Of a stretch of 64,000 bases of DNA, positions 4,880-40,529 are shown one piece after another. The notes under the pieces are model-generated. The model saw nothing but the letters and a program-made list of their open reading frames with translations. It was not told where the DNA came from and made no database searches. A program made the position numbers and the translations under genes. This DNA is from an uncultured Candidatus Binatia bacterium (GTDB lineage: Bacteria > Desulfobacterota > Binatia > UBA9968 > CAXXLF01): assembly GCA_965218425.1 (NCBI GenBank), contig OZ244621.1, positions 2,752,001-2,816,000 of the forward strand. The letters run 5' to 3'. Each line of letters starts with the position of its first letter. The first letter of the stretch is position 1.

Positions 4880-6460
4880 TTACCGCAGTACGAACTGAAC
4901 CGGGACAACCAGCACAACCTGTGTCCGATCCAAGCTGTCAGGAATCCGTGGTAGCGGCTGAGCGCGTTTGATCATTGCAATAGCCGCCCGGTCCAATAAA
5001 TCATAGCCGCTGCTCCTCTTGATCCGGTAATCCCGCAAGCGCCCGTCTCGATCTATCACGAAATAGAGATAAACCGTGCCTTCTTGACGGCGAGATCGGG
5101 CTCTTCTGGGATATTCTTTGTATTTCTCCAACCATGCTTGCAGCCGCGCCATGTAATCCGCCCGTGCGCCGGCCATGCCGCCGTCGCCGATGGAGCTGGG
5201 ACCGGCCCCGGCACCCGATCGGCCAAGCGCACCCGGTACCGCAACCGATTCGATTTCCACGGCAGTCGCAACGGTCTCGGCCCGCGCGGCCTCGACAAGG
5301 GTCGCGGCGGCCGGGGTCACCGCCTCCACCTCCAGGGGATCCCGTGGCGGCGCACCGGTCTCCTCAGCCAGGCGCGGCGCCAAAGTCGGCCCGGGCGACG
5401 TCGCTTCGACCAACTCCGCAGGCGACGCCTGTTCTACCGGCTGTGGCGCAACCGATCCGATCTCCACGGCAGTCGCGGCGGTCTCGGCCCGCGCGGCCTC
5501 GACAAGGGTCGTGGCGGCCGGGGTCACCGCCTCCACCTCCAGGGGATCCCGTGGCGGCGCACCGGCCTCCTCAGCCAGGCGCGGCGCCAAAGTCGGCCCG
5601 GGCGACGTCGCTTCGACCAACTCCGCAGGCGACGCCTGTTCTACCGGCTGTGGCGCAACCGATCCGATCTCCACGGCAGTCCCGGCGGTCTCGGCCCGCG
5701 CGGTTTCGACAAGGGTCGCGGCGGCCGGGGTCACCGCCTCCACCTCCAGGGGATCCCGTGGCGGCGCACCGGTCTCCTCAGCCAGGCGCGGCGCCAAAGT
5801 CGGCCCGGGCGACGTCGCTTCGACCAACTCCGCAGGCGACGCCTGTTCTACCGGCTGTGGCGCAACCGATCCGATCTCCACGGCAGTCGCGGCGGTCTCG
5901 GCCCGCGCGGCTTCGACAAGGGTCGTGGCGGCCGGGGTCACCGCCTCCACCTCCAGGGGATCCCGTGGCGGCGCACCGGCCTCCTCAGCCAGGCGCGGCG
6001 CCAAAGTCGGCCCGGGCGACGTCGCTTCGACCAACTCTGCAGGCGACGCCTGTTCTACCGGCTGTGGCGCAACCGATCCGATCTCTACGGCAGTCCCGGC
6101 GGTCTCGGCCCGCGCGGCCTCGATCTCGGCTGGCTTCACCATCTCCGGCACGACGGGTTCTACGGCCAGTGCCGGAACCGGCGCCGGTGACATTGTGACC
6201 GTCTTTTCACTAGGTCCTTGCAGGGCGGTTTCGGTGGCGACCACCCGCTCCGCCTCAAGTATCCTCGTGATCGTTCCGGCAACGCTGCCTGGTTGAGCGA
6301 CGGCAGAGCCAAGCGATATCTCGATCCCGGCCGGTTCGGTGCTCTCGGTACTTTCGGTCCAGCGGATATTCGGCTGCCACAACAGTCCCGCCATCACGAT
6401 GACATGCATCAGCACGGCCGATGAAAACGCCATCATCCAATGGTACCGGCCGATTCGCAT
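4880..6460 (-). CDS. tonB: Energy transducer TonB with long repetitive linker
   Basis: N-terminal TM with SxxxH; C-terminal YPRRARSRRQEGTVYLYFVIDRDG..SSGYDLLDRAA TonB_C domain. Confidence 0.9.
   Translation of the reverse strand: MRIGRYHWMMAFSSAVLMHVIVMAGLLWQPNIRWTESTESTEPAGIEISLGSAVAQPGSVAGTITRILEAERVVATETALQGPSEKTVTMSPAPVPALAVEPVVPEMVKPAEIEAARAETAGTAVEIGSVAPQPVEQASPAELVEATSPGPTLAPRLAEEAGAPPRDPLEVEAVTPAATTLVEAARAETAATAVEIGSVAPQPVEQASPAELVEATSPGPTLAPRLAEETGAPPRDPLEVEAVTPAAATLVETARAETAGTAVEIGSVAPQPVEQASPAELVEATSPGPTLAPRLAEEAGAPPRDPLEVEAVTPAATTLVEAARAETAATAVEIGSVAPQPVEQASPAELVEATSPGPTLAPRLAEETGAPPRDPLEVEAVTPAAATLVEAARAETVATAVEIESVAVPGALGRSGAGAGPSSIGDGGMAGARADYMARLQAWLEKYKEYPRRARSRRQEGTVYLYFVIDRDGRLRDYRIKRSSGYDLLDRAAIAMIKRAQPLPRIPDSLDRTQVVLVVPVQFVLR
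5244..6123 (-). repeat. 207-bp (69-aa) tandem repeat, about 4.2 copies, inside tonB
   Basis: ACCGATCCGATCT recurs at 5451, 5658, 5865 and 6072. Confidence 0.95.
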
Positions 6461-6528
6461 CAGCGTTTTCCGGGCAAGGTGAGAAGGTGGAGTTTCTCAA
6501 CTCCGGCATCGCGCAACAACTCCATCAC
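6460..6528 (-). pseudogene. exbD: C-terminal stub of ExbD/TolR, truncated at the module C end
   Basis: VMELLRDAGVEKLHLLTLPGKR* with TGATG overlap into tonB; 5' part replaced by ..GATTTGACCCCTT. Confidence 0.75.
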
Positions 6529-6529
6529 A

Positions 6530-6905
6530 AAGGGGTCAAATCTTTTGTTGACAAATAACATCTTCCGGATTTTCCCGCCGCCTCCGAAATCTTCCAGCCG
6601 CCCCGCGCTTTAAGTGAATCCCAAAATCGGCGTCATGCTCGCCTTCTTGCTATTCTGGGTTTCCTTTCCTCTCGGATTCCGGCTTGCATCGTGCCGATTC
6701 TCTTTTGGAATGTCCTGTCCGTTTGCACGCGGTGTTCTAAAGCATGTATGCGATCCTATCTCGTCGATTGCATTTTCCCGGGCGTATCGTTTGTGATGGT
6801 CTAACCCGACGTAAAGCATGGGGTCTGCTCCTTTCAGGTTTGACGGCCGTTGCAACCGCCATCCTGCTGGAGCTTGCCCCCTTTTTCATGTTGCCTGATC
6901 CCGAT
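6530..6905. repeat. Composite repeat: module C (+) then modules A and B (-)
   Basis: AAGGGGTCAAATCTTTTGTTGACA..CTTTAAGTGAATCCC, then AAAATCGGCGTCA and the reverse complement of B+A. Confidence 0.9.
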
Positions 6906-7052
6906 TTCTGATCGTCGGGGTGTCTCGACACTCCCCCAGTCTCCGCCGGAACAAAGATCCCAAGACCGCCACACCACGATCACCCGGAAGGCCGATCACG
7001 AAACCCACGCCGCCCATAAAGGCGGGCAAGACGCGGAGATCGACGGTCGTCA

Positions 7053-7451
7053 TTACGAGACGCCCAGGATGAGCCCCAGCGCCATCGTGGCAATCGCTAT
7101 CGTCGCGACGCCCCAGACGATACTGCGAAGCCAGCCGACTCCTGTGGCATAAGCGGGCAGGTAGACGACCCGGCTGCCGAACCATATCCACCCGCCGTAT
7201 GAGGTCAGTTCGTTGGCGCGGCCGGACAGCTCGGCGGCAATGAGCACCGCCAGGGCGGCGGGCAGCGTTTCGAGGTAATTCGCGAACGCGCGCCGCATGC
7301 GGCCGCTCAACGGGGTCTCGCGTGGCGGACCGTCACGAGCGCCGAACGCCCAAGCGTTTCCCGCGGCGCCCCATTGCGTCAATCCATGTGCGATGAGATG
7401 GACAAACAACCACGCTCCCGCAAGCACGATCAGCAGGACTTCGTCGGTCAC
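7053..7451 (-). CDS. MAPEG family membrane protein
   Basis: GRMRRAFANYLETLP..SRVVYLPAYATGVGWLRS; SD GGAGG before GTG. Confidence 0.85.
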   Translation of the reverse strand: MTDEVLLIVLAGAWLFVHLIAHGLTQWGAAGNAWAFGARDGPPRETPLSGRMRRAFANYLETLPAALAVLIAAELSGRANELTSYGGWIWFGSRVVYLPAYATGVGWLRSIVWGVATIAIATMALGLILGVS

Positions 7452-7721
7452 TGTTTCCTCCCTTCGACCTTGACTACGTTTTGCCGCAAGGCGGCCTTTG
7501 ACGGCCACTCGGGCTTGGCGTCAAGGCTCACGTCCTCCTCGGCTTGGCCCTCGTTGGCCGATAGTTGTACAGCCTCACCGTCACGGTGGGGCGGTCATCG
7601 GATTCAGGCATGGGGCCTCCCGAAAGGGCAGGAGTCATGTCGCCGCCACTTCTTTATTAGGTTTATATTATGACACAAATAAAACCATTGATGCATCAAG
7701 AACCGCTGACAATCCGGAAAG

Positions 7722-7848
7722 AAGAGTTACGGTGCTTTAGGCCGGGCGTGCCATGGGATTCACTTAAAGCGTGAGGCGGCTGGAAGATTTCGCAGGCGGC
7801 TGGAAGATCCGGAAGATGTTATTTGTCAACAAAAGATTTGAACCCTTT
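7722..7848 (-). repeat. Repeat module C (RAYT-like 5' end)
   Basis: Reverse complement AAAGGGTTCAAATCTTTTGTTGACA..CTTTAAGTGAATCCC ATG GCA CGC CCG GCC. Confidence 0.9.
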
Positions 7849-7953
7849 ACCGGCAATCTCCACGGTGTCGGAGTCGATGAGGCGAGTCGCGCCGGTCGGA
7901 GTTTCGGCACTGGCAGGCGCCACGCGCAGTAGGGCCGGCAAAGCAGTTCTCAT
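7848..7953 (-). pseudogene. N-terminal stub of a thermonuclease (SNase) family protein, cut at module C
   Basis: MRTALPALLRVAPASAETPTGATRLIDSDTVEIAG resembles the G..RVIDGDTIEI motif. Confidence 0.55.
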
Positions 7954-7996
7954 AATTGGACTCTTCTTAGAGAAACGTGCTGAGACACGGCGAGAC

Positions 7997-8698: not shown

Positions 8699-8774
8699 TT
8701 GTCAGAGCAATCAAGATTGGGAAGGGAGATGATCTTTGGCGGTGTCTCAGTTCCCTTTAAATCGGTCAGTATCA

Positions 8775-8990: not shown

Positions 8991-9029
8991 GACTATCCTT
9001 CCGCCCTCTGCCAAAGGACCGCACGAAAC

Positions 9030-9195
9030 CCGGAGTCATGCCTGCCCTCTTGCTATTCTGGGTTCCCTTCCCTTTCGGATTCCGGCTTGCATTATACCGA
9101 TTCTCTTGTGCAACGTCCTGTCCATCTGGACGCGGCGTTCCAACCAGCGCAACCCACGGCTCATCACTCCGGGATCACGGCTTGAATATCGGTGT
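9030..9195 (-). repeat. Repeat module A, long form
   Basis: RYSSRDPGVMSRGLRWLERRVQMDRTLHKRIGIMQAGIRKGREPRIARGQA* ending GCATGACTCCGG. Confidence 0.85.
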
Positions 9196-9266
9196 AGGCG
9201 GACGGAAATAAGAGGCGCCCCCCGATAGGACCGCACCCCCATCCCGCGCGCGCACTTCTCAAGCGT

Positions 9267-10745
9267 CTACCGTTCCCGTCCTTTCGATAGCGCCTCTCTC
9301 CCGAACCGCTGGTTGGCCTCCAGTGTCTCGCGCACGTCGTCCCAGGTCGTGTTGTGATTGATGATGCAGAGCCTGAGCGCAAACGTCTTGCGCAGCAGGG
9401 TCGATGACATGAACGCGCGGTCCTCCCAAAAGACGCGGGCGAGCACGTTCCTGTTGATCTTCTCCAGGGCTTCCTCGTCGAGGTCGGCGCTCGCGGGGTT
9501 GACCCGGAAGCACACGATCCCAAGCGACGCGGGGTTCAAAAGCTCCAGCACCGGGCTCTCCCGGATATACTCCTCGGCCCGGGCCGCCAACTCCATCCCC
9601 TTCGACACGGCCCGCCGGAACGCCGCCATCCCGAAGGTCTGCACCGACATCCAGATCTTCAACGCCCGAAACGAGCGGCTCAGTTGCAGGCCGCTGTCCG
9701 AGAAGTTCGGGTGGTTCGCTCCCCACACCGTGTCCTGGAGGATATCGTGCCGAACCGCGAATGCGTTCTCGAGCGTGCGTATATCCTTCACCAGAAGGCC
9801 GCCCGTCTCGTAAGGCTGGAAGAACCATTTGTGCGGATCCAGCCCGATGGAATCGGCGCGTTCGATCCCGCGCAAGAGCTCCTTGCCGCGCTCGGTCACC
9901 ACCGCGAAGCCGCCGTACGCGGCGTCGACGTGCAGCCAGATGCTCTCCGCCTCGCAGTAGTCCGCCATGGCTTCGAGCGGATCGATGGCCCCCGTGCTGC
10001 TCGCTCCGGCGTTGGCACACACCGCGATGGGATTGAATCCCGCGGCCCGGTCCTCTGCCACGGCGCGCGTGAGCGCATCCATGTCCAGGCGGAAGCCTCC
10101 GTCGTTCACAACCAGGCGAATGCACTCCGGCCGAATGCCGATGATCCTGGCCGCGCGGATGAGAGCGCTATGGCTCTGGTTGCTCATGTACACGGTGGCG
10201 CGCTCGGGGTGGCCCGCCGCTTCCCGGGCCGCCGCCAAGGCGTCGACGCTGGTCGCCGACCCTCCGCTCGTCAAAAGCCCGCCCGCGCTCTCCGGATAGC
10301 CGAGCCAGCGCCGCAACCAGTCGATGACCACCAGCTCGAGCTGGCTCGGGCCGCTTGCGATCAGCCAGGTGCATGCGTTGATGTTGTATCCGGCCGCCAT
10401 GAAGTCGGCCAGCACCCCGGGCCACGTGGGCGACGATGGGATAAACCCGAAGCAACGCGGGTGATCGAGCCGCAGCGTGATCGGGAGGATCTCTCTCGCG
10501 GCCTGCTCGATAACCTCCACCGGCGGGCGGCCGTCCTCGGGCGGAGCCTCCATCAGTCTGTCCATGAGCTCCTGCCTGAACTCTCCGTCCCAGGCGTTTT
10601 CTCCCGGCAAGCCCTCGATCCGCTCCACCACGAGCTCGGCCGCCTTGCGGGCAAGGTCGAGCATGAGCTCGGGCGCCATCCGGAGGCCGTCGGGCGCCTC
10701 GCTACGTGCGCCTGCGCCCGGCTCTTTATCGCTCCTTTGTTCCAT
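9267..10745 (-). CDS. PLP-dependent aromatic-L-amino-acid decarboxylase family protein
   Basis: LTSGGS, WLHVDAAYGG, DPHKWFF; SD AGGAGGAG before ATG at 10745. Confidence 0.92.
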   Translation of the reverse strand: MEQRSDKEPGAGARSEAPDGLRMAPELMLDLARKAAELVVERIEGLPGENAWDGEFRQELMDRLMEAPPEDGRPPVEVIEQAAREILPITLRLDHPRCFGFIPSSPTWPGVLADFMAAGYNINACTWLIASGPSQLELVVIDWLRRWLGYPESAGGLLTSGGSATSVDALAAAREAAGHPERATVYMSNQSHSALIRAARIIGIRPECIRLVVNDGGFRLDMDALTRAVAEDRAAGFNPIAVCANAGASSTGAIDPLEAMADYCEAESIWLHVDAAYGGFAVVTERGKELLRGIERADSIGLDPHKWFFQPYETGGLLVKDIRTLENAFAVRHDILQDTVWGANHPNFSDSGLQLSRSFRALKIWMSVQTFGMAAFRRAVSKGMELAARAEEYIRESPVLELLNPASLGIVCFRVNPASADLDEEALEKINRNVLARVFWEDRAFMSSTLLRKTFALRLCIINHNTTWDDVRETLEANQRFGREALSKGRER

Positions 10746-10889
10746 CAGACTCCTCCTGTTGCGGTATGATACATCGGCATTGTCAGACTCACTGGATCGG
10801 ACCTGTAAAACCTGCAATCGAGCACTCTCAGGCTGCAAGTTGACGCCACCCGGCCAGAGCGGTGGCTCGGTCTTGTTTGAAAATGACGC

Positions 10890-11042
10890 TATGTATGCGA
10901 TCCTATCTCGTCGGTTGCATTTTCCCGGGCGTATCGTTTGTGATAGTCTAACCCGACGTAAGGCATGGGGTCTTCTCCTTTCAGGTTTGACGGCCGCTGC
11001 AACCGCCAACCTATGGGAGCTTGACCCCGATTCTGACCCCGG
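10890..11042 (-). repeat. Repeat module B with two TGACCCC ends
   Basis: ..GAGCTTGACCCCGATTCTGACCCCGG; encodes the degenerate IS110 start (M)PYVGLDYHKRY. Confidence 0.85.
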
Positions 11043-11058
11043 TTCTTTTTGTGTATGG

Positions 11059-13018: not shown

Positions 13019-13062
13019 GTTCGTTTCGCTCGTCTTCACTTCCCTTGACAACAGGGTTGGTA

Positions 13063-13170
13063 AAGGGTTCAAATCTTTTGTTGACAATTAACATCTTCCG
13101 GATCTTCCAGCCGCCTCCGAAATCTTCTATCCGCCTCACGCTTTAAGAATCCCATGGCACGCCCGGCCCA
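13063..13170 (+). repeat. Repeat module C
   Basis: AAGGGTTCAAATCTTTTGTTGACA..CTTTAAGAATCCCATGGCACGCCCGGCCC. Confidence 0.9.
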
Positions 13171-13369
13171 CCCCGTGTTTTCGAATTCTCCGATTCTCCA
13201 TTTTTCGCTTCGCGTTGTTTAACAAACCGTTTCGCCTTGGGCCCCCTCGTTTCGACGTTTCCTAACCCGCTCCGGTAGGTATCCAGCGGAAGCCGGGCCA
13301 CAGGGGTCCGGCCCATCACCAGACAGCGGCAACGGCCGTGAGAACGGAGCCCGTTGTGAGTGCCGACAA

Positions 13370-14488
13370 GTGCTCAACGCCTTACGGCATCCAATAGACA
13401 ATCACATCCAGGACCCGGGCGGCGGCCGCAAGTCGCTCTAGTGCTCAACGCCTTACGGCATCCAATAGACAATCACATCCGGTTGTGGACCAGCCGAAAT
13501 AGCGCAGTGCGTGCTCAACGCCTTACGGCATCCAATAGACAATCACCGCTGGCGCGAGGAGACACTGGCCATAGTCGGTGATGTGCTCAACGCCTTACGG
13601 CATCCAATAGACAATCACACGGCCTTTACCAGTTCCGTCAGGTTGGTTAACTGGGTGCTCAACGCCTTACGGCATCCAATAGACAATCACAAGAAGCAGA
13701 ATGAGCTCCCTGTAATCCAACGGCCTCTGTGCTCAACGCCTTACGGCATCCAATAGACAATCACACGAACACGAGCAGTTCACTTACACCGCGGCCGAAG
13801 CCGTGCTCAACGCCTTACGGCATCCAATAGACAATCACAGCCGAGACGTTTCTATCGTTGGACACTCTGTGGACGTGCTCAACGCCTTACGGCATCCAAT
13901 AGACAATCACGCGGCCGAGCCGCCGCCGTCGTTCGAGACCGTGCCGTGCTCAACGCCTTACGGCATCCAATAGACAATCACTTGTAGCGCTCTTGCTTAT
14001 CCAAAAGGGCCAAGTTGTACTGTGCTCAACGCCTTACGGCATCCAATAGACAATCACAACTCGTTCTTGTCGAACACCGGCTCGTCCTTGTCGTGCTCAA
14101 CGCCTTACGGCATCCAATAGACAATCACGTAATAGAGCACATCGACAACAAAGTGGACAGCCAGTGCTCAACGCCTTACGGCATCCAATAGACAATCACT
14201 CCAACGCATCTTGCAGGATTCGCAAACTAGTTGCGCCCGTGCTCAACGCCTTACGGCATCCAATAGACAATCACCAGGAATGCAACCGAGTAATCGATGC
14301 ACCAAACATAGTGCTCAACGCCTTACGGCATCCAATAGACAATCACTACCGAACCGAAAAAATAAAAAGCCTCTCTTGTCCGTGCTCAACGCCTTACGGC
14401 ATCCAATAGACAATCACCCGACGATCCGCGAGTCGGCGCCGCGCCCCTCCATGTGCTCAACGCCTTACGGCATCCAATAGACAATCAC
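13370..14488 (-). CRISPR. CRISPR array: 16 identical 36-bp repeats, 15 spacers of about 34-40 bp
   Basis: Repeat GTGCTCAACGCCTTACGGCATCCAATAGACAATCAC (+); AT-rich leader on the cas2 side implies minus-strand transcription. Confidence 0.99.
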
Positions 14489-14756
14489 TTCCCGTGGATA
14501 AGTATTTATGTTTGTTGGACTTTTCCATCCTCTATACAAGGACCCCTTTTCCACAATCGAGATTTGTCTCAAAATGTCCCCGCTTTCCTCCCTCTTCCCA
14601 TCCAACTGATGAATATCCCTCCACTTTCTCTTATTTCACGAACCCTTTTCTCCCTTAATTTCACTTTTTCATAGAAACACAAGCAGTTAGTCGTTTTTCT
14701 TGAATCTTGGCTCCAAACACTCCTGGGTGCATGAATTCCGGATCTTCCCGAAAAAA
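14489..14756 (-). promoter_or_regulatory. CRISPR leader
   Basis: AT-rich noncoding stretch between the cas2 stop and the first repeat. Confidence 0.75.
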
Positions 14757-15050
14757 TCACACCACACGAAAGCGCGGCTCATCCTCAACCCATTCGGTGT
14801 TGGGATTACGTACAATCAGCTTTGACCTGCACGAGGAACAAAGTCCCGCAATCATCAGGCTGTCTTCAGGCGCCATCTCCTTCTCCAGCTCCCAACGCAT
14901 CCGCTCAAGCTGTCGCCTGGTCAGACGACAACGAAAGATCGAATATTGCAGGCTTTCCCCGTAGCCCTTAAGCAGCTTGAAGCAACGACGCCAACGTTTG
15001 GGGTCACGAATGTCGTAACAAACCAGATACCAGATCCGTCCTTCCGCCAT
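14757..15050 (-). CDS. cas2: CRISPR-associated Cas2
   Basis: YLVCYDIRDPKRW..GYGESLQYSIFRC. Confidence 0.97.
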   Translation of the reverse strand: MAEGRIWYLVCYDIRDPKRWRRCFKLLKGYGESLQYSIFRCRLTRRQLERMRWELEKEMAPEDSLMIAGLCSSCRSKLIVRNPNTEWVEDEPRFRVV

Positions 15051-15060
15051 GCACGACCTC

Positions 15061-16716
15061 TCAACGCAGACGCATACGAGCGAACAACCCAGGTTCTCCG
15101 GCCCATTCCTTCTCCAGCAAACGAGCCTCCAGTTCGATCAATCGCGCATACGATAACGAATATCCTGTCACAGGATGTTTCCACCGGTCTTCTTTTCGGC
15201 GTTCATAGATCTCAATGGCTTTTTTTCGACCGGAATCACTGAGCCAGATTTGCTTGCCCGCGTGTGTAAAGTCCTCTTCCACATCCCACTGAAGGCGATT
15301 GACCGAAGCAACCAACGGCATGTCCCATAGCGGGACTCGAAACAACTCCATCAGATCCAAAGCTAACGGGTGAGCGGCCGAACGCGGACGGTGAAAGAAG
15401 CCAAAAGCGGGTTCAAGTCCGACGGCTATTATCGCCTGCAAGACATCCCGGTACAGAAGTGCGTAGCCAAAGCTCAACAGCGCATTGATCCGATCCCGAG
15501 GCGGACGACGGTTTCTTCCGTTGAAACGCAATCGTTCATCCAAGTCGTCTCGCAGCAGTCCAGGGAAACCTGAGAAATAGTGACGCCCGGCATCCCCCTC
15601 GTGGCCCCGCAAGGAATCGATCCCTTCCGCATAACCGGCGGCACGAAGCGCGTTCCGAAGCCCTTGCACGGCGCCATCAATGCCCAACGACTTTCGATCC
15701 TTGCCCCGCGACGCCCGCAGCAAAAACCCAAGCTGGCCGGACGCTCGGGCAATCGCCAACCGTCGGCCCAAGCGAAATGTCAAGCCGGGGTCTCGCAATG
15801 CCTCGAACTGACGGATGCGCCGCTGCACCGGACTTGCGCTAGAGACAAGTCCGCTTACGTAGCGTCCTCCGCCCGTAAACCAATGCACCCCGACTTCCTG
15901 GGAGGCACACAGATGGATCGCTTGGGTGCTGATCTGCGCGTAACCGTGGATAACAATCTCTCCGACCTCACGAACGGGAAATGCCTGCTTCTGCCCGGCT
16001 GTGTCCGTGACCGTCAGGGTTTCTCCGGACTTGCCAATCCATGCTCCATGCGTCGTGACGTGAACGGTCTGACGTTCACGGTCTTGTGGAAAGAGTCGGA
16101 CAGGTTCCCAGTCCTCATCTTTAGCCAGGCGTTCTTCCTCAGGCAGACAGACCGGGGCGAGGGAGCAGCGCAGACATAGCCGATCATTTTCAGCGACCGG
16201 CGGGCGTTCAACGGTCCGGCTGAGCTCACGGGCACGAGCGACAGCCTTTAGAACATCTCCACGTGCTGTTTCGTCCACGGGGACACGGACAGTCGTATTA
16301 TTGGCGTGGTAGCGAATCCGCGCTTCTTCGATATGAGTCCCGGTGTGCTCCTCCAAAAGCAGAGTATACGCGCATACCTGGAGACGGTCGCTCGGCCACG
16401 CCTGCGGCCCAACGTCGCCTTTAGCCGAACGACCGCGCTTGTGTTCGTAGGGAATGAGCTGACCATCCCGGCGGCGCAGGCAATCAACCTTCCCGCGAAT
16501 GCCGAGCGTCTCGCTCTCCAGGACCAGGCTGACAATTTCGCCTTCGTCAGCCGCCAGCTCTTCATGGAGACGGCGCCCTGCGTACACCGCTGCATCCGCG
16601 ACGCGAATCTCTTCGACCTCTTCCAGGTAGAAAAGACGCTCGCAGTACGCCAAGGCGTGGAGAGCCATGACGCGGATGGTGGGGGTATCCATGGTAACAA
16701 GTTCGTTCAGAAACAC
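15061..16716 (-). CDS. cas1: Cas4/Cas1 fusion (Myxococcus subtype)
   Basis: N-terminal YCER..GKVD..EHKRG..CLRCSLAPVC Cas4; C-terminal RPPRDRINALLSFGY..GFFH..LDLMELFR Cas1. Confidence 0.97.
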   Translation of the reverse strand: MFLNELVTMDTPTIRVMALHALAYCERLFYLEEVEEIRVADAAVYAGRRLHEELAADEGEIVSLVLESETLGIRGKVDCLRRRDGQLIPYEHKRGRSAKGDVGPQAWPSDRLQVCAYTLLLEEHTGTHIEEARIRYHANNTTVRVPVDETARGDVLKAVARARELSRTVERPPVAENDRLCLRCSLAPVCLPEEERLAKDEDWEPVRLFPQDRERQTVHVTTHGAWIGKSGETLTVTDTAGQKQAFPVREVGEIVIHGYAQISTQAIHLCASQEVGVHWFTGGGRYVSGLVSSASPVQRRIRQFEALRDPGLTFRLGRRLAIARASGQLGFLLRASRGKDRKSLGIDGAVQGLRNALRAAGYAEGIDSLRGHEGDAGRHYFSGFPGLLRDDLDERLRFNGRNRRPPRDRINALLSFGYALLYRDVLQAIIAVGLEPAFGFFHRPRSAAHPLALDLMELFRVPLWDMPLVASVNRLQWDVEEDFTHAGKQIWLSDSGRKKAIEIYERRKEDRWKHPVTGYSLSYARLIELEARLLEKEWAGEPGLFARMRLR

Positions 16717-18356: not shown

Positions 18357-18383
18357 GCTTTTCCTCCTCTGAAATTTCGTTAT

Positions 18384-18761
18384 TTAGGAATGCGCTGAAA
18401 GAGCCAACATCGACAGCGCTTTTATCCTCTCCCACCCTCCGTCTTCAAGGAGGGCCTGCGAGACAAAGACGTAATCATCTGAAGGTAGAAACTGTGGGAC
18501 AGAACAGATAGCCCCGGTAAAGTATTCAATGAATTCCTGGTCTCGACGGGAACGCATCGCAAGGAAGGCATCCATACAGATCTTTTGCCTTGCCTCTATG
18601 TATGCGGGCGGGATTGATATTTTCCCGTCAGGTGTTTTCTTGTCTTTAAAGTCACTCCATTTAATCTTTGATCTAGCCTCAGTCTTTTGCCGGACATAAG
18701 CACCCATCATGTCGTAGATGCGTTTCTCTAGCGACTGAGGTTTAACTGTGTCCTCTGCCAT
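18384..18761 (-). CDS. cas11: Putative internally translated Cas11 small subunit (125 aa), in frame within cas8
   Basis: CAGGAGG-8nt-ATG GCA GAG in the cas8 frame. Confidence 0.75.
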   Translation of the reverse strand: MAEDTVKPQSLEKRIYDMMGAYVRQKTEARSKIKWSDFKDKKTPDGKISIPPAYIEARQKICMDAFLAMRSRRDQEFIEYFTGAICSVPQFLPSDDYVFVSQALLEDGGWERIKALSMLALSAHS

Positions 18762-20048
18762 AGCGTGAGCCTCCTGTGAACGTTTGAAGTCTTCAGTAAG
18801 GGTTTCGAACTTCTTGCGGGCGTCAAAAGAAAAGAGAGCGAATCCTTTCGGCGTTTTTTCTGTGCGAATGAAAAATTCGGCTGGATGGTTCGAGAACAAT
18901 CCAAGAAAATCTTCCGTCCAATCAAGCTCCCGCAGAAGGTTCAGCAATAATCGCGATTTGAAGAACGGATTTCGGCATGACTGCCTGATGCTTTCGTATC
19001 GGGTCAGCAAGCCATCCCGTGGAATGATTTTATCGGTAGTATGAGTCTTGACGTTATTCCCTTGTTTTTCCAAGGAGAAGAGTTCGATCGCGCTTACACT
19101 GTACTTGACGTTTTCACTTTCCGCCTTTTGCTGCGCAATAAGTGACAGATTGCGGAGGAACTCCAGTCCACCTTCTTCTGGGATATCGATTATGGAAGCC
19201 GCAGGACGGTAACCCCGTAACTGAGGATCAAGCGTAGCCAATGAGGCAGGGAAAACATCACAGAATTCTTCTAAGTCGCTTACCTCCGGGATAGCAAGGA
19301 CATATCCTTTGATCTCATTGTTGCCTTTTCTGTTGATAGTTTCCGGGACAAAAATGTTGAGAGTGAGCGGCCAAAAGTGGAGCAGAAGATTCTGAGTCAC
19401 GACTCCCTTAAACGGGACCTTCTCCGCGTTGGATGCTTGCGCTCCCACAAAGAGTGAACCCGAAATTGTGTCAACGATAGGTTGTGCTTGTTCCTTTTTC
19501 TGCACAGCTTCGCTTAACGCCTTCCATGATGATTTTGCTTCCTGACATTGGTGATGATCTGCTCGTTGCTCGTAAACCTTGCGTGTGGTGGGTTGCGCTC
19601 TTAGGGTTGCCCAAAGCATGTCACGCCAGAGCTTAAGCCAACCCTCTTCAACCCCAGGATAGTGATGCCCCAGGAATGAAGCCTTCGGTTCGATTACATC
19701 GTAGACGTAAATTTTATTTTTCTTAACTTTTCCACTCTTCTCATCTTGGCTCTCCTCCATCTCTTCCCGTTTGGGTGTTTTCCCAGGCCGTTTGGATTTG
19801 AAGCGCCGTTCTACTTGCGCTGCGTCATAAAGGTCATCAAAAACGGTTTGCATCGAATCCTGAGTAAATATTAGCTTCACACCGGTCGCTGAAAGATTGT
19901 TCACCTTCGGTAATGGACCGGCTCCACGTTGTTGAAGAGATTCAATCAAAAGAAGTAAACCGGCGAGACCAGCTTTATGCTGGGCGCTGGGGAGATCGAA
20001 TAGATTGTAGGATAATACAATCTCTTTTATAGGAGTTGCTCTTGTCAT
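18384..20048 (-). CDS. cas8: Cas8 large subunit (Cmx8)
   Basis: LFDLPSAQHKAGLAGLLL..LWRDMLW..GAQASNAEKVPF..LLLHFWP. Confidence 0.92.
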   Translation of the reverse strand: MTRATPIKEIVLSYNLFDLPSAQHKAGLAGLLLLIESLQQRGAGPLPKVNNLSATGVKLIFTQDSMQTVFDDLYDAAQVERRFKSKRPGKTPKREEMEESQDEKSGKVKKNKIYVYDVIEPKASFLGHHYPGVEEGWLKLWRDMLWATLRAQPTTRKVYEQRADHHQCQEAKSSWKALSEAVQKKEQAQPIVDTISGSLFVGAQASNAEKVPFKGVVTQNLLLHFWPLTLNIFVPETINRKGNNEIKGYVLAIPEVSDLEEFCDVFPASLATLDPQLRGYRPAASIIDIPEEGGLEFLRNLSLIAQQKAESENVKYSVSAIELFSLEKQGNNVKTHTTDKIIPRDGLLTRYESIRQSCRNPFFKSRLLLNLLRELDWTEDFLGLFSNHPAEFFIRTEKTPKGFALFSFDARKKFETLTEDFKRSQEAHAMAEDTVKPQSLEKRIYDMMGAYVRQKTEARSKIKWSDFKDKKTPDGKISIPPAYIEARQKICMDAFLAMRSRRDQEFIEYFTGAICSVPQFLPSDDYVFVSQALLEDGGWERIKALSMLALSAHS

Positions 20049-20052
20049 TATT

Positions 20053-22371
20053 TCAGTCCTTCACCCCTACAAGCCGGTCAAGAAAACCATAGGCAGGATG
20101 GTAATGAGTAGCGGGAGCCACTTTCAAAAATCGTCCCAGAGATGAGCATGATTTAGCAAACCGCCTTGGGACCGGCACAACGAATCCATCCGTTGGCTGC
20201 CTATGCTTTACTGCCAAAAGCCAGTCCTGCATATCGATGTCGAGGATGGCGGGCACCGTGAATTCCTCTCCCTCTCGATATGCGTAACTCATCGCATAAC
20301 AACCACTTTCCAAAAAACTGCTGAACCGTTCGGGTTCACGCTGGACGGGCTGATGTTCGGCCATAGTCGCTTCCAAGTATGCTTGAGAGAAGACTTTTCC
20401 ATCAAGTACGTGTATGAAGGATTGAGCGTCGCTGATTTCTTCGGGCTTATAGGGAAGGCCATCTGTCGCTGGATAAACATAGACTTCTCCACATTTCCCA
20501 TCTCCAGGCTTTCCTCTTCTGTTACAACGCCCCATCCTCTGAATGAGAGCAGTAATCGGCGCGTATTCTGAAAGTAAAACATCAGCGTCGAGATCCAGGC
20601 TCATCTCACAAACTTGGGTCGTGACTGCGAGGAAAGGGCCTGTCTCTCCCTGAAATGCGTTGATGACCGACTTATGTTGTGTCCTCCGATCAGTAAGTCT
20701 GAAGCGACTGTGGTAGCACTGGACTATCCCGTCACCGAACTGTTGCCCCATTGAGAGCGCAATATCCTGACATTTCCTAACCTGGTTAGTAACCCACAGC
20801 ACTTTCTTCTTTTCTTGAAGAGCTTGCCGGGCTTTTCTCTCTGCGTCCTCGCGTGAAGTAATATGGAGGCGGTAGCGGGGGTGTTCGGCTCTTTCTTTCA
20901 AGTCGTCGAGATTGTTAAGCGTTTCAGGAAAAAGCTGCAGGCCGCACTCGTCAACTAAGGTGCGCCGCCTCCCCTCTGACAGTGTGGCAGTCATGCACAG
21001 CACAGGGACATCAAACTGTTTGAGAAATGTCGTAAAAGCAGAAAACATCGCTTTGTCAAAACTATGGATCTCATCTACAACGATGACGCTATCGACAAGC
21101 AGAGGCAGTAGGCACAATGGGCCATATTGGTTTTGCATGAAGGCTAAAAACTGGTCTGCTGTCGCACTGAAAAGACGTTTTTGCCAGAATCCTAGTGCGT
21201 AGAGACGTTGTTCCGTAGTGAAATTCTTCTCCGTTCGGGTATCAGCAGGATTTTCAAACATTTCCTCCAGGTCATAGGCTGCTGTACCATGAGCCAGCGC
21301 TGCATCTTCTTCCGGAGCCCAGGCTACATAGTCCCGAAAGCCTTCCGTTGCGGTCGCACGTGTTGGATAAAGAAAGAGCACACGGGTCGCCGGCTTTTTC
21401 TGTAGGCGCGTCGCAATCCAGTTCCAGGCTGCCAGGGTTTTTCCGCTTCCACATGGAGCGAGCAAGAGGGCTCGCTCGCTAAGGGTGCTCGCCTGCTTCT
21501 GGAAATCTTGGAGCTTAAAATTGCTTTCGGTTTTTCTCTCGATCTCCCGAACGCGGGGAAAAATAACTTTGTCACGGATGTCCTGAGCTGAAAGAGGATC
21601 TCCAAATGAAGCTTTTAACCAGCTTTCAAGATCATGACCTTCCCGGACTACGCCTGACCCTGCCGAGTCCGCGGCGAGGAGGGCTGCCTTTACGCTGCAC
21701 AGAAATGAAAGCTGCTGTGGATCTTTACTTATTGCTCTCCCAAAACGATGTGCTTGGTGTTTTGCGGAATTAAGGAGGTCCGTGAGATTGAATAAAGAAG
21801 AGGAGTCTGTCTGGAAACTCCAGAAAAGAGGAATATTGGGTCGAAAGGGGACTGGCAGGCTAAGTGTCTCACCAATAACGTCAAGCAGCTCTGTAAAACC
21901 GCTTTTATCTCCGAGAACGCGGAATGAATCGCTCATCCCTAGCGGTTGACCCCAGCGGTCTGGATCAATCTTTAGGTGGTGAGAGATAACGCTGGATAGC
22001 ACGACATCGAAGTCGAGCAGAGGATTGCAACTAAGCCACCATTTGAAATCCGGCAAACTTAATAAAAGACCGCTCAAATGTTCGTGACGAATGCTTTGGT
22101 CGCCGTTTCGTCTGACAACTTTTTGGAATCCATCATTTGCTTTGCCAAGATCATGGCAGGCTGCGGCTGCTAACGTATTCATGAGAAAACGTTCATAGTC
22201 CTCATTTTTCAGGCGGAAAAAGCGTAGCCATTCCCGAGCGAGACGTGTAGGGGCATTGGCATTGCCGTAAAGCAACTCTACGGATGCCATAATATCCTTT
22301 GTGTGGCACAGCAACGTTTTTGGTTGCCTACCTGGAATTGGACTTTTTGCTAAGATTATTCCTTCCATCAA
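20053..22371 (-). CDS. cas3: Cas3 HD nuclease-helicase
   Basis: HDLGKAN, APCGSGKT, DEIH, MTAT, QRMGRCNR. Confidence 0.97.
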   Translation of the reverse strand: MMEGIILAKSPIPGRQPKTLLCHTKDIMASVELLYGNANAPTRLAREWLRFFRLKNEDYERFLMNTLAAAACHDLGKANDGFQKVVRRNGDQSIRHEHLSGLLLSLPDFKWWLSCNPLLDFDVVLSSVISHHLKIDPDRWGQPLGMSDSFRVLGDKSGFTELLDVIGETLSLPVPFRPNIPLFWSFQTDSSSLFNLTDLLNSAKHQAHRFGRAISKDPQQLSFLCSVKAALLAADSAGSGVVREGHDLESWLKASFGDPLSAQDIRDKVIFPRVREIERKTESNFKLQDFQKQASTLSERALLLAPCGSGKTLAAWNWIATRLQKKPATRVLFLYPTRATATEGFRDYVAWAPEEDAALAHGTAAYDLEEMFENPADTRTEKNFTTEQRLYALGFWQKRLFSATADQFLAFMQNQYGPLCLLPLLVDSVIVVDEIHSFDKAMFSAFTTFLKQFDVPVLCMTATLSEGRRRTLVDECGLQLFPETLNNLDDLKERAEHPRYRLHITSREDAERKARQALQEKKKVLWVTNQVRKCQDIALSMGQQFGDGIVQCYHSRFRLTDRRTQHKSVINAFQGETGPFLAVTTQVCEMSLDLDADVLLSEYAPITALIQRMGRCNRRGKPGDGKCGEVYVYPATDGLPYKPEEISDAQSFIHVLDGKVFSQAYLEATMAEHQPVQREPERFSSFLESGCYAMSYAYREGEEFTVPAILDIDMQDWLLAVKHRQPTDGFVVPVPRRFAKSCSSLGRFLKVAPATHYHPAYGFLDRLVGVKD

Positions 22372-22953
22372 CTAGCCTCTCCACGGCACGAACACACCAC
22401 AACCCATCCGCCTACGACCACCTAAGCCGTTCTCTTGGAGGGTCAGGGATTCCTCTGCTGTGAGTTGGGTGACGAATAATTCAAATCCAACCACCTGCTT
22501 GTCCTTGACCCGGAAGGTGCGCCGCTGGCCCAAGGTGGCCTCGCACGTAACGTCGAGACTTTGCAACTTGCGCTGTACGGCTTCGAGAAAGTCCGCCTCT
22601 TCAAGAAATCCCTTGATCGTAACCAATCGAGCGCGGAGACGGGCGGCTGGCAGGAGCATACGGACTTCCGGTACACCCACGCTGAGAGGGTGTTCGTCCA
22701 CGTCCAATCTTTTCCCGGCCAGCTTTAGATAAGAACGAATCCGGTCATCTGGAAGGCGCAGTATCAAACGAGAAAAATCCATTAATTGGAGTTTCCCGTT
22801 TCCGTTATACATGCCGCGAATAGGCTGAACGCCAAGGGCTTTTGCCTCGTGTATCTCCGGAACAACCCGGCTCAGCGCCGCGTATAAAGCATAGCCATGG
22901 TCAACGGGAACGGTCGATCCGTTCAGGCGAAAAGCTAGATCAATATGCGGCAT
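22372..22953 (-). CDS. cas6: Cas6 (Cmx6 type)
   Basis: MPHIDLAFRLNGSTVPVDHGYALY..GLGGRRRMGCGVF; the longer ORF runs into module C. Confidence 0.93.
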   Translation of the reverse strand: MPHIDLAFRLNGSTVPVDHGYALYAALSRVVPEIHEAKALGVQPIRGMYNGNGKLQLMDFSRLILRLPDDRIRSYLKLAGKRLDVDEHPLSVGVPEVRMLLPAARLRARLVTIKGFLEEADFLEAVQRKLQSLDVTCEATLGQRRTFRVKDKQVVGFELFVTQLTAEESLTLQENGLGGRRRMGCGVFVPWRG

Positions 22954-23039
22954 TGCGATGGAACTGTTGTCAAATTGTGGGTAAAAAGATCCCGGCGGCG
23001 ACTCTGGTTCTTTCGATTTGAACCCCGTCTCAGTATACA

Positions 23040-23190
23040 AAGAGGTCAAATCTTTTATTGACAAATAAAATCTTCCGGATTTTCCATCCGCCTCACGCTT
23101 TAAGTGAATCCCAAAATCGGCGTCAGGCTTGCCTTCTTGCTATTTGGGTTTCCATCCCTTTCGGATTCCGGCCTGTATTGCACCGATTCA
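23040..23190. repeat. Module C (+) joined to truncated module A (-), same junction as at 6530
   Basis: AAGAGGTCAAATCTTTTATTGACA..TAAGTGAATCCCAAAATCGGCGTCAGGCTTGCCTTCTTGC. Confidence 0.9.
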
Positions 23191-23471: not shown

Positions 23472-23750
23472 CCGGAGTCATTCTTGCCTTCTTGCTATCC
23501 TGGGTTTCCTTCCCTTTCGGATTCCAGCTTGTACTGTGCCAACTCTCCTCCGCAATGTCCTGTCCATCTGGACGTGGTGTTCTAAGGCATGGATCCGATC
23601 CTTTCTCGTCGATTGCATTTACCTGAGCGTGTCGCTTGTGATAGTCTAACCCGACGTAAAGCATGGGGTCTTCTCCTTTCAGGTTTGACGGCCGCTACAA
23701 CCGCCATCCTGCTGGAGCTTGGCCCCATTTTCATGTAACCTGACGCCGGT
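23472..23750 (-). repeat. Repeat modules B+A
   Basis: Encodes MLYVGLDYHKRHAQVNAIDEKG; ends CGGCGTCAGG and TGACTCCGG. Confidence 0.9.
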
Positions 23751-23792
23751 TTTTGTTTGTCAATCGTAAGATTCGAAAGGAGACAAAACGGG

Positions 23793-24848: not shown

Positions 24849-24896
24849 GCATCTAACTGGGTGCTCCACCGGACGGCAATTCCACTATGCTGGGGC

Positions 24897-25070
24897 CGGG
24901 GTCATGCTTGCCTTCTTGCTATTCTGGGTTTCCTTCCCTTTCGGATTCCAGCTTGTATCGTGCCAGTTCTCTCTTGGAATGTCCTGTCCGTCTGGACGCG
25001 GTGTTCTAATCAGCGCAACCCACGGCTCATCGCTCCGGCATCACGGCTTGAATATCGGGTAGCCTCCATG
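24897..25070 (-). repeat. Repeat module A, long form, ending GCATGACCCCGG
   Basis: MEATRYSSRDAGAMSRGLR*LEHRVQTDRTFQERTGTIQAGIRKGRKPRIARRQA*. Confidence 0.88.
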
Positions 25071-25133
25071 AGTCGGCATCCGGCTTCTTCAACCCCTATC
25101 TTCGCCATAATCCGGCGTATCCGACTTATCTCT

Positions 25134-25247
25134 CTACACGTAGGCGTAGAGTTCGTAGCCGAATCGGGTTGGCAGCCCTTGAAGGATCGCAAGGTAGCGT
25201 TGGCGGTCATCGTCATCGCGGAAGATGAGGCGGCCTTGGTTGGCGCG
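25134..25247 (-). pseudogene. RAYT / Y1 HUH transposase internal fragment
   Basis: RANQGRLIFRDDDDRQRYLAILQGLPTRFGYELYAYV*, matching the RGN..IF.DD.DR..YL..LYAYVLM segment before the HUH motif. Confidence 0.75.
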
Positions 25248-25567
25248 GCGTGTCTATTTCATCGAGCACTTCAAATAGCAATAAGACATGCTTGACACCA
25301 TCCTCTTGCTGATTTCCGCAGGACCGAGACATTCACTCCCATGCTTGGCTTCGAGCAGTACATCCAGCACGGCTTCCTCTAGGCAAAATTCACCGATCCT
25401 GGCGAACTGTTTGGGTCTGATTCCACTCATGATCGAGCCTCCTTGTTTCTGTTTTCTACCAGTCGGATGGCTTGAAAGGATCTTTCTGATTCGATAGGGA
25501 TAGGATGGGTGTTTCTTACTGTGACCAGTATCCTGGATAATTCCCCAAAATTTGAAGGAGACCGAGT

Positions 25568-26038: not shown

Positions 26039-26072
26039 GGATCAGTTGTCCCACCACTAATATGTGGTGTCA

Positions 26073-26450
26073 GCCTTTCCTTTCGGATTCCGGCTTGTAT
26101 CGTGCCGATTCTCTCTTGGAATGTCCTGTCCATTTGGACGCGGTGTTCTAAGCATGGATGCGATCCTTTCTCGTCGATGGCACTTACCTGGGCGTATCGC
26201 TTGCGATGGTCTAACCCGACGTAAAGCATGGGGTCTTCTCCTTTCAGGTTTGATGGCCGCTACAACCACCATCCTGCTGGAGCTTGACCCCTTTTTCATG
26301 TTACCTGACCCCCATGTTGGGTAATTTGGAGTGAAGAGTTACGGTGCGGCGGGCCGGGCGTGCCATGGGATTCACTTAAAGCGTGAGGCGGATAGAAGAT
26401 TTCGGAGGCGGCTGGAAAATCCGGAAGATGTTATTTGTCAACAAATGATT
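26073..26450 (-). mobile_element. Most complete composite C-B-A unit (putative non-autonomous RAYT-derived element), interrupted at its C end by IS3
   Basis: Minus strand: C end, ATGGCACGCCCGGCCCGC (MARPAR), GGGGTCAGG, GGGGTCAAG hairpin, IS110 start, module A. Confidence 0.75.
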
Positions 26451-27693
26451 TGAGGTAGCCCAGGTTTGACGGACACCTAAAAAGGGGACAAGATCCCCGC
26501 AGGAGGTGTTCGATGGGCAAGCGAAGGCGTTTCACCCAAGAGTTTAAGTTGGAAGCTGTTCGACTGCTGGAGGCGGGCGCTCGGCCAGCAGCGGAGATTG
26601 CACGGGAACTGGGAGTACCTCGCAATCGACTGTACAAGTGGCAGGAGCAAGTGACGAGGAAAGGGGCGGCTGCGTTTCCCGGCACAGGTCGAGGTAGAGA
26701 CAACGATGAGGTAGCACGGTTAAGGCGAGAGCTGGAGCGGGTAACGGAACAACGAGATATATTAAAAAAGGCCGCAGCGTACTTTGCCAAGGAGCTCAAG
26801 TAAAGTACGCGTTTATACGAGCTCACAGGACAGAGTTTAGGGTAGTGAGGATGTGCGAGGTATTAGAGGTCAGTCGTAGTGGGTACTACGACTGGAGCGG
26901 TGGAGGGGAGTCTCGGCGTAGAGCACAGGATAAGGTTGTGATCAAAGAGATCCGCAAGGTGCACGAGAGCTACAAGGAAGCGTACGGGGCAGTCAAGACA
27001 TGGCTGACGCTGAAGGAGGCGGGGGTGACATGTGGGAAGCATGGGGTGGCGAGGCTGAGGAGTTTAGTGGGGATAGAGACGCGTCGGGTGCAAAGGTTTC
27101 GATTGGCCTACAAGGCTCGTCACAGTGCGCCACCGGCACCGAACTTGTTGCGTCAACGCTTCGAAGCGTCAGGCCCCGACCAGGTATGGATGGCCGATAT
27201 TACCTTCATTGGTACCCGATCTGGGTGGTTATACCTGGCGGTAGTGGTGGACCTTTACTCTCGGCTGGTGGTGGGATGGTCAATGAAGCAACGTCCCACA
27301 CAGGAGTTGGTCAGTGAAGCTTTACTGATGGCTATCGAACAGCGCCAGCCTATGGCGGGGCTGATTCACCATAGCGACCAAGGAATCCAATACGCTAGCA
27401 ATCACTACGTTGAGTTGCTCAAACGCCATGGGGTGGTGCGCAGCATGAGCCGCAAAGGGAATTGCTACGACAATGCAGTGGTCGAGAGTTTGTTCAGCTC
27501 ACTAAAGAATGAACTTGTACACCATCAGGATTATAAGACGAGGCAGGACGCTAGGTCGGATATCTTCGACTACATTGAACTGTTCTACAACCGAAGAAGA
27601 AAGCATGAGTCGTTGGGATACCACACCCCAATGGCATATGACTCGATCAAACGTGTGGCTTAATTAACTGTCCGTGAAACCCGGGTCGCTTCA
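26451..27693 (+). mobile_element. Intact IS3-family element, 1243 bp
   Basis: IRL TGAGGTAGCCCAGGTTTGACGGACA; IRR (rc) TGAAGCGACCCGGGTTTCACGGACA; ATT 3-bp target duplication. Confidence 0.95.
26513..27663 (+). CDS. IS3 transposase OrfA (26513-26803) / OrfB joined by -1 frameshift
   Basis: AAAAAAG slippery site at 26764-26770; WMADITF, HHSDQG, DNAVVESLF DDE motifs. Confidence 0.95.
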
Positions 27694-27706
27694 ATTTGAC
27701 CCCTTT

Positions 27707-28935
27707 GTCGATTCGGGTAGAGAGCTCGAAGGGATCAGTTGTCTTAAGCGTGTGCTTGAGGGCTGCGAGCTTTTTGGGATCTCCCTTTCGGGACTCCACG
27801 ACCCGCTCAAAGGGGGTACAGGGCGTGTCATAGCGGCGAATAAGTCGAGAGCCTTTACGGATTTTGCATTGCAGTTTCATCGAGGGCTGGAACAGATTCT
27901 GGAAGATCCTAAGCTCATCATAGAGCTGGTTGGTGGACTCTTGGGCCTTTGCGGTGTCGTAGCGATCCCAGCCCATAAGCTTTCTGACATGGGTCCAGTT
28001 TTTCTGCTCGATGTGGGCGTTGTCGTCTTTTTTGTAGGGTCGCGGGCGGGTGAACTGGATAGTACGGCCAGCTGGGCGTTGTTGACAGAAAGCAAGAAGG
28101 TGGTTGTTGATGAACTCGCTGCCGTTGTCAGAGTCGATCCCCTTGAGAGGGAAAGGAAGCTGGTGTTCGATCTCGGTGACCGCATTCAAGATACCCAAGG
28201 CGCTCTTACCCATGACGGCCTTGCGCTCTACCCAGCAGGTAGCAATGTCGACACAGTCCAGGCTATGGACAAACTCCCCAACCGCTGAGGCCCCTGAGTG
28301 TGACACCAGGTCAATCTCCAGATAGCCCGGCCGGTTCACATCCCAATGATCGGTCTTAATGGGAATCATCTGCTTGAGCAGCGATCCGGGCCGAGTGGTG
28401 CCATAGAGTCGGCGTTTTACGATGTGCTTGGTTGCCCTCAGGCGCCGATCCATCTGACGGGCACTGATGGCCAGGAGCTGATCCTCTACCGATTGGGTCA
28501 GCTCGAAGTGTTGCCTTATCCAGGGCAACCAGTGCACAAGGGCGGCCTTCAGACGTTGGGAGCACAGATACCCCGAGGCCTCCCACACCTTTGCCAAAAT
28601 CCTTACCATCGCCCGACTGTATGTAGGAGAGTGTGGTGCACTCCGTTTGCGTACAGTCGTCTCGGGCAAGGGCCGGTTTAAAAGCCAGATGGCATATTTG
28701 CGGTTGTAGCCGCAAACCTTGTAGAATTCCTCTAACATCATCTTCTTCTCCGCCCGTTGTGCCTGGCGGTAACGTTCATAGATGGATCGTAAATACTCCC
28801 GCTTGGATCGTCGTGCCATGGTGAACCCTTCCATTGTTGTCCTCCTTGAGCCCTAACATGAGCCCTTGGAGGGTTAGAATTACAAATGGCGCAACGAATG
28901 GTCTTTGGGTTAGATTATACACGGCGCAATACGGC
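27707..28935 (-). mobile_element. DDE (rve) transposase, ISNCY-like (CDS from 28819), 3'-truncated at the module C end; repeated end motifs at 28871-28935
   Basis: PGYLEIDLVSHSG, DSDNGSEF, DDNAHIEQKN; two GGGTTAGA..GGCGCAA repeats upstream. Confidence 0.8.
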
Positions 28936-37882: not shown

Positions 37883-37885
37883 GAT

Positions 37886-40503: not shown

Positions 40504-40529
40504 GGTTGAACCATCTCAATTATGCTCGG

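Follow-up and report, generated by a model that had tools for sequence, protein, structure and literature searches.

What makes unrelated genes end abruptly at one and the same short sequence? This question is raised by a stretch of 64,000 nt (hereafter, the window) from an uncultured Candidatus Binatia bacterium (contig OZ244621.1, positions 2,752,001 to 2,816,000), in which a repeated segment, module C, ends in the motif GATTTGA(C/A)CC(C/T)TTT next to pieces of foreign genes. We compared the window with its source genome (G000), with a genome of the same genus (G001) and with a further genome (G002), using 29 fetched stretches of the latter two. By its sequence, module C is the orphaned end of a TIRtron of TnpA-Y1 subclass 2.1.2. 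The TIRYT protein of such an element, acting in trans, likely nicks one strand 3–6 bases outside the core TGACCCC and joins a single end to unrelated DNA.

The motif occurs exactly at 6529-6542(-), 7835-7848(+) and 13062-13075(-), and with one mismatch at 23039-23052(-) and 27693-27706(+). At up to two mismatches the window contains 8 matches versus 1.77 expected by chance, and 0 of 100 shuffles reach 8. The match at 27693 is not a free-standing motif; it is a C end split by an IS3 element (26451-27693). Module C consists of the last ~40–60 codons of a TIRYT gene and its right terminal inverted repeat (TIR, core TGACCCC). The reading frame closes with ...VICQQKI, and its stop codon lies within the motif. 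An intact C-type parent was found in G001 (locus L014). It encodes 319 aa with a Y1_Tnp domain and a Bac_DnaA_C-like helix-turn-helix (HTH) domain (PF08299, 7.3e-09), carries the HuH and Y---NP motifs, and its left TIR is an inverted copy of the C end. Module C peptides are 67–72% identical to the last 39–57 residues of this protein (match region, residues 263–319). Two intact G000 genes also have the Y1 core with HuH and Y---NP, and the catalytic motifs are intact in all three aligned full-length TIRYT genes. TIRs of the type GGGG[AT][CG]A that flank the gene are represented by the left TIR of L014 and by 17 complete elements; the window holds single ends only. Thus, the link of module C to HUH enzymes, proposed in the preliminary description, is supported: the module is the end of a Y1 HUH gene. 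The ends are not an ori/ter pair; the parent has an inverted repeat at both ends.

The two intact G000 genes carry TIR types other than C. Module A is the 3' end of the gene at 2583264-2584253, which rules out its assignment as an IS110 end, and module E ends like the third TIRYT gene, at 1404080-1405051. A separate end family with an exbD flank, "module D", was also rejected; the sequence in question is the end of an IS1182 that lies next to a C-type TIR. Module B (26158-26229 of the window) includes a ribosome site and ~24 codons, with 27 matches in G000, none of them within a long frame. We take these codons to resemble the IS110 N-terminus; there was no Pfam match and no full-length parent among the 27 G000 matches. 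Overall, G000 contains 52 matches to A, 45 to B, 19–20 to C (17 with a recognisable end) and 19 to E, mostly in about a dozen clusters. In most cases the copy is an orphan gene end, and such ends, which come from several TIRYT types, are nested into one another (A into C, B into C, C into E). A plasmid search found distant TIRYTs only (<60% identity), and a viral scan found one locus.

What happens to the genes at the C ends? The exbD gene was described as cut to its last 22 codons at 6529, and an intact paralogue of 140 aa at 1704.6 kb of G000 (83% nt identity, Pfam ExbD 3.6e-22) bears this out. Homology to the paralogue begins directly after TTT, and the motif is missing from the paralogue at the corresponding point. 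In all four of the 7 runs for which contigs were available, the exbD-side contigs extend to 6546, into the TIR; one X4 contig matches 7849-8069 and continues with 58 further letters. The exbD junction recurs at 695 kb of G000, where the remaining module C is replaced by IS1182. The rve (DDE) transposase at 27708 retains 376 of 429 codons, so its C-terminus is indeed lost. Five intact G000 copies (89%) and an intact 99.4% copy in G001, which matches from 27708 on, place the break after TTTG, one base past the terminus named earlier; the G after TTT belongs to the end and not to the target. The ~90 bp said to remain upstream of cas6 are 85 bp between the C junction and the cas6 ATG. They are the 3' end of an IS256-family element, 82–84% identical to copies at 1.1 kb and 3305.8 kb of G000, and are therefore one more cut element. 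At 7848, a frame of 35 codons (7849..7953) reads into the C motif and stops there, as was noted. Its name, a thermonuclease-like N-terminus, comes from a motif and is tentative: the fragment has no Pfam or NCBIfam match and no full-length relative, and the lead is a weak Atlas match (0.77; SNase on 11% of a cluster). A nuclease C-terminal piece at the B end at 1943428 was rejected as the missing half of this fragment, because it is like a G001 nuclease that the fragment does not match. A second nuclease gene likewise breaks off at a B end. Judged from open reading frames, a gene or element is cut at 7 of the 16 independent C junctions; at a further 7 the neighbouring gene looks intact, with its start or stop 37–143 nt away, and 2 are unclear. 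The statement that foreign genes are cut at the C terminus thus applies to the first seven; the other seven spare the neighbour.

To assess how precise the breaks are, we took 114 A, B, C and E ends with a core and searched G000 and the 29 fetched stretches for flank homologues that start within 150 nt and do not themselves adjoin an end. Such non-sibling homologues were found for 49 ends. In 29 of them homology starts at +3 to +8 past the core (26 at +3 to +6), versus ~2.3 expected under uniform placement; merging of duplicated junctions leaves 17 independent tight breaks. A, B and E ends behave like C ends, and the joining end is not particular to module C as was first supposed. At six independent C junctions with an intact comparator, homology starts +3, +4, +4, +5, +6 and +6 past TGACCCC. 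The breaks are tight, but to place them exactly at the TTT terminus says too much: their start is not fixed and varies from 3 to 6 nt past the core.

Unrelated junctions have common tails, such as TTTGTCGA (five ends) and TTTACCA (four ends). A tail of at least 7 nt in common with an unrelated end was found in 38 of 121 independent ends; nulls that keep 3, 4 or 5 nt give 5.2, 12.5 and 21.4 (max 33), respectively. The apparent microhomology at junctions is 1–7 nt. Because targets often match from +3 or +4, either a tail of 5–9 nt may be inherited and joined via a short match, or the end may prefer such targets; the two would look alike in sequence. No single dinucleotide is common to the junctions, and a loose target match of 2–5 nt is possible. 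The low target specificity proposed earlier holds in that the comparators at the breaks differ and there is no fixed target; given the common tails, the end is not entirely free in its choice. We did not keep a strict R-Y rule for the target after TTT, which came from a count of 16 purines in 16, because a purine stands at +4 in only 34 of 127 C-type ends elsewhere and +4 is tail according to the 99.4% comparator.

The joining is apparently one-sided. In G000 and the fetched G001 and G002 stretches, the missing half followed by a facing TIR was found for none of the 16 junctions, in agreement with the claim that the halves are not across the module; one apparent match was a look-alike inside an intact TIRYT gene. 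The 17 complete TIRtrons have no target duplication (best flank repeat, mean 1.53 versus 1.54 by chance). These results and the derived copy described below support one-sided joining without target duplication, with the catalysis inferred. An empty-site comparison of two TIRtrons and three small clusters gave no clean insertion, the relatives being too distant or the sites remodelled. In G001, a B end also present in G000 is joined to DNA that, by G000 positions, lies 36 kb away, and at a synteny break an E end meets backbone sequence. A 3-kb exbD-tonB block has been displaced in G001; what flanks it is another insertion sequence (IS), not TIRs.

The plainest example is found outside the window, where 3,867 bp at 673–677 kb of G000 are 99.0% identical to 1795–1799 kb. 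The copy ends at an E tail and cuts a LON-domain gene at codon 114 of 228. The source at 1795–1799 kb is intact and collinear with G001, where a single match to the operon was found.

C-type TIRs elsewhere have a further property. A genome scan (23 stretches) and a metagenome scan (at least 124 stretches) yielded 127 distinct C-type ends from other genomes, each with at least 40 nt of flank. Tandem duplications spanning the junction (stutter) are present in 44 of the 127. Shuffled sequences gave 1.8 (max 6); among the controls, such duplications were seen in 6 of 466 flanks and at 7 of 759 other TGACCCC sites. The copies begin inside the TIR and extend into the flank, forming arrays of up to six. 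Of the 52 units that parse cleanly, 48 allow an outer boundary at +4 to +6, a value with a lower bound set by the 3 flank bases needed for detection; it agrees with the junction window in G000. The inner boundary is at 1–19 nt, and 24 of 76 units had extra bases. Stutter occurs at both element ends (9/24 left, 4/10 right), and also at some uncatalogued G000 sites and G001 ends.

The data show directly what the module is, that the breaks fall in a narrow window, that target duplications and facing halves are lacking, and that one derived copy ends at a tail. From sequence we infer TIRYT catalysis on TIRs, which could proceed as follows. The C-terminal HTH would bind the TIR, and HUH/Tyr chemistry would nick one strand per TIR, each inverted end acting alone. 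The nicked end would then be joined to a partner on the strand of the same polarity. In one polarity, a free 3'-OH tail would anneal via 1–6 nt of microhomology and prime copying of the partner; in the other, a foreign 3'-OH would attack the 5'-phosphotyrosine on the end, which is the rolling-circle HUH route of IS91 (PMC13181058). Of the two, 3'-tail priming is favoured, both by the apparent microhomology and by the fact that the source is intact. Stutter duplications would result from a partner lying a few bases back within the TIR, adjacent deletions and nested ends from one farther out, and a copied block with the source left intact from a distant one. Homologous recombination among modules that are 75–95% alike, and integration of whole islands by other means, would then reshuffle the blocks. 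The link from stutter to long-range junctions is our extrapolation, because by the same test none of the 125 catalogued G000 module ends stutters.

This last result weighs against nicking and single-end joining, and so do the following. G000 has no intact C-type TIRYT, and one of its islands is bordered by direct repeats of ~72 bp, not by TIRs. Among the contig matches listed (4 of 7 runs), none has an alternative joint at a C end. In the survey, 20 of the 49 testable ends start beyond +8, and 65 of the 114 ends have no comparator. Two of the 38 long common tails are one duplicated junction missed by the filter, and the microhomology estimate is inflated by the choice of the best sibling. No TIR lies at the far end of the 3.87-kb copy, so the copy may be what is left of a larger duplication after trimming. 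In folding, six end sequences do not exceed their shuffles (z -0.5 to 1.0). No TIRYT activity is reported in the literature found, and no test of TIRYT enzyme function was found in the literature searched (subscription papers outside its reach). The breakpoint statistics and the 3.87-kb copy appear to support capture but stop short of proof.

Could the junctions arise without single-end joining? Ordinary two-ended insertion of TIRtrons and miniatures without target duplication, with later homologous recombination deleting or swapping the flanks, would draw on about 150 module matches of 72–100% identity clustered in a dozen regions. At an A module, the same flank is followed by different blocks in G000 and G001, G001 module clusters lie at synteny breaks, and any insertion would give precise ends. 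However, inversions and swaps would retain both halves of a cut gene, and no facing half was found. Stutter, a derived copy with an intact source and tails longer than the target match would be left unexplained, and neither of the two TIRtrons compared with G001 is a clean insertion. We regard this explanation as unlikely. Less probable still is that the transposase merely binds the TIR, and that replication stalling with host template switching or microhomology repair makes both junctions and stutter. The 1–7 nt of apparent microhomology, the variation of the break over several bases and the lack of a common dinucleotide agree with it, but the narrow outer boundary of stutter units and junctions suits a nick better than a stall zone, and the catalytic motifs are intact in the three full-length genes.

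IS3, IS1182 and a group II intron do occupy TIRs, and the IS1182 copies at 695, 728 and 740 kb have no target duplications, so adjacent deletion by such TIR-targeting DDE elements or introns was considered as well. These elements end inside the core or on its inner side, whereas the breaks lie 3–6 nt outside it; moreover, an IS is present in 1 of 17 C ends, and the IS3 of the window keeps an intact duplication. We find this origin of the junctions very improbable. There is equally little to expect from an integron-like system with TIRs as recombination sites and blocks as cassettes exchanged site to site. It would account for the seven C junctions that spare a gene, for the common defence-type cargo and for the blocks shuffled between G000 and G001. 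Unlike in a cassette array, however, the intact comparators lack a core where the break falls, a gene or element is cut at 7 of 16 C junctions, genes are cut mid-frame, and ends lie in all orientations. The case of two end types with one flank at 695011 is the same C TIR holding IS1182. Nor do the data resemble DDE IS or miniature inverted-repeat elements, as none of the 17 complete elements or 16 junctions shows a two-ended insertion with target duplication.

The element class itself was already named, as TIRtron/TIRYT by Di Nocera et al. 2013 (PMC3733652) and as the TIRYT group (TnpA-Y1 subclass 2.1.2) by Quentin et al. 2018 (10.1101/279083), where subclass 2.1 is the second largest Y1 group, found in 14.9% of strains. 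Known TIRtrons are like ours in the Y1 HUH protein with Y---NP and a Bac_DnaA_C-like HTH, in GGGG[AT][CG]A TIRs overlapping the 3' end of the gene, and in dispersed, clustered TIR copies (PMC3733652; 10.1101/279083). A mobility assay, a breakpoint map, cut genes, copied blocks or stutter are not reported in the available text of these two papers. A further difference is that most copies here are nested orphan gene ends of several TIRYT types. What is new here is the breakpoint map and the copy-capture case. TnpAREP is of the same enzyme class; its cleavage of single-stranded DNA has low site specificity and can take place far from where it binds, and it carries out strand transfer in vitro (Ton-Hoang et al., PMC3333891; Bertels et al., 10.1101/119735, for the class and these likenesses). 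Nick-primed extension and religation were proposed for the amplification of bacterial interspersed mosaic elements (PMC3333891), and the REPtron does not move as a unit (PMC3333891; 10.1101/119735). In contrast to REPtrons, the ends described here have no GTAG-tagged hairpin and no common CT dinucleotide, while there is an extra HTH domain and there are junctions with foreign genes. The Y1 enzymes studied use hairpin substrates, whereas the TIRs here form none beyond chance.

One-ended transposition of IS91/ISCR also combines an HUH enzyme, no target duplication, and one precise end with adjacent DNA (PMC13181058). According to the available text of the same source, the two ends of IS91, oriIS and terIS, differ from each other and its target is a fixed tetranucleotide, in contrast to inverted copies at both ends and no fixed target here. 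IS91 carries DNA behind a missed ter end, whereas here foreign DNA lies outside the precise end. Capture by Helitrons is alike in the HUH enzyme, the lack of target duplication, one precise end and the carried adjacent DNA (PMC4778049). A broader proposal, which we regard as doubtful, is that TIRYTs are a new type of bacterial gene-capture machine. Each inverted end would be nicked alone, its tail would pair with a 2–6-nt match and prime copying of foreign DNA with the source intact; stutter, cut genes and copied operons would be its short-, mid- and long-range products, and defence islands would be built and remodelled in this way. If nicking and single-end joining are correct, TIRYTs are gene-cutting and gene-copying agents in bacterial accessory islands. 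If the end copies foreign DNA, it offers a route to duplicate and truncate genes in such islands that is distinct from IS91-type capture. The junction map gives a predicted cut position, two polarities and natural substrates.

Table 1. Features of the window (positions in the 64,000-nt stretch; kb values refer to G000)
Feature	Position	Strand	Remarks
Module A end	432..542	-	Break at +4 versus 98% copy at 473.5 kb
B-A miniature element	2996..3213		
tonB	4880-6460		Follows exbD remnant
exbD remnant, last 22 codons and stop	6460..6528	-	Codons at 6463-6528
Module C, facing exbD	6529..6623	-	3' coding end, right TIR and TTT tail of C-type TIRYT
Modules A and B, back to back	6629..6902		A: 3' end of A-type TIRYT, own end joined into interior of C; B: TIR-ended, double core
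MAPEG-family passenger gene	7053..7508	-	Between B and C
Module C	7721..7848	+	39-aa peptide 67% identical to C-terminus of intact G001 TIRYT
N-terminal fragment, 35 codons	7849..7953	-	Reads into C end; putatively thermonuclease-like, by motif only
Outward-facing A and B ends	9032..11045		Around complete PLP-decarboxylase gene
Module C	13062..13171	-	Interior fused to CRISPR leader; end 46 nt beyond stop of intact open reading frame
CRISPR array (16 repeats) and type I-B cas operon	13370..22953	-	Between two C modules
Decayed 3' end of IS256-family element	22954..23038	-	Cut at C end, directly before cas6 ATG
Short module C and partial module A	23039..23189	-	
A-B miniature element	23474..23747		Ends outward
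Internally deleted A-type TIRYT	24898..25299	-	5' and 3' gene pieces
Truncated A; module B	26074..26450	+	B joined into interior of module C
IS3-family element	26451..27693	+	Within C TIR; 3-bp target duplication ATT
Remainder of C TIR and TTTG tail	27694..27707	+	
rve/IS481-like transposase element	27708..28934	-	C-terminal ~53 codons and right end missing
5' fragment of another Y1 transposase gene	32584..32808	+	
B-A miniature element	34674..34922		

The CRISPR-Cas locus of the window has a diverged counterpart. A second type I-B locus at 223–233 kb of G000 has the same two C junctions as window 13062-23124. In both, the leader is fused to the interior of C and an IS256 stub precedes cas6; the compared parts are about 88% identical. 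The spacers of the window array had no match in G000 or the fetched loci.

TIRs also serve as sites for other elements. The IS3-family element (26451-27693 and 12 further G000 copies) shows a preference for TIR cores: among 13 close copies, 8 have an end 3 nt ahead of (T/C)GACCCC, and most of these have a 3-bp duplication. In the IS1182 family (G000 695009-696652 and short remnants), 12 of 26 ends are placed 4–9 nt before a TIR core. The fetched G001 stretches contain 17 copies of a group II intron (Rfam RF02005), most of them inserted at TGACC/CC within TIRs of several types. Its carriers are L014, L016, L018, L068-L083, L105 and L106, with a full form of ~2.0 kb and a short form of ~0.77 kb. 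A literature search found no earlier report of a group II intron in TIRs.

The intact E-type TIRtron at 1404.08 kb of G000 (L003:114-930) abuts the start of a modA-like frame. The regulator gene present at its place in G001 has no match in G000, and an adjacent deletion is possible there. The island bordered by ~72-bp repeats (G000 2464.9-2470.4 kb, L109) is 5.5 kb long, bears modules and has no tRNA; its empty site is present in G001. In the window, a tRNA-like 3' end (250-430) that may mark an island border is separated by ~150 bp from the first A end; the stretch in which it lies is 98% identical to 473.0-473.5 kb of G000. The tonB gene (4880-6460) has four tandem repeats of 207 bp, more than its copy at 694 kb. 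Beyond the last B-A element come MmeI-type and Mrr restriction genes (35075-38788). The region of a bactofilin pair (40033-41184) has a 97% duplicate at 678-679 kb of G000, and one of its boundaries is an E tail.

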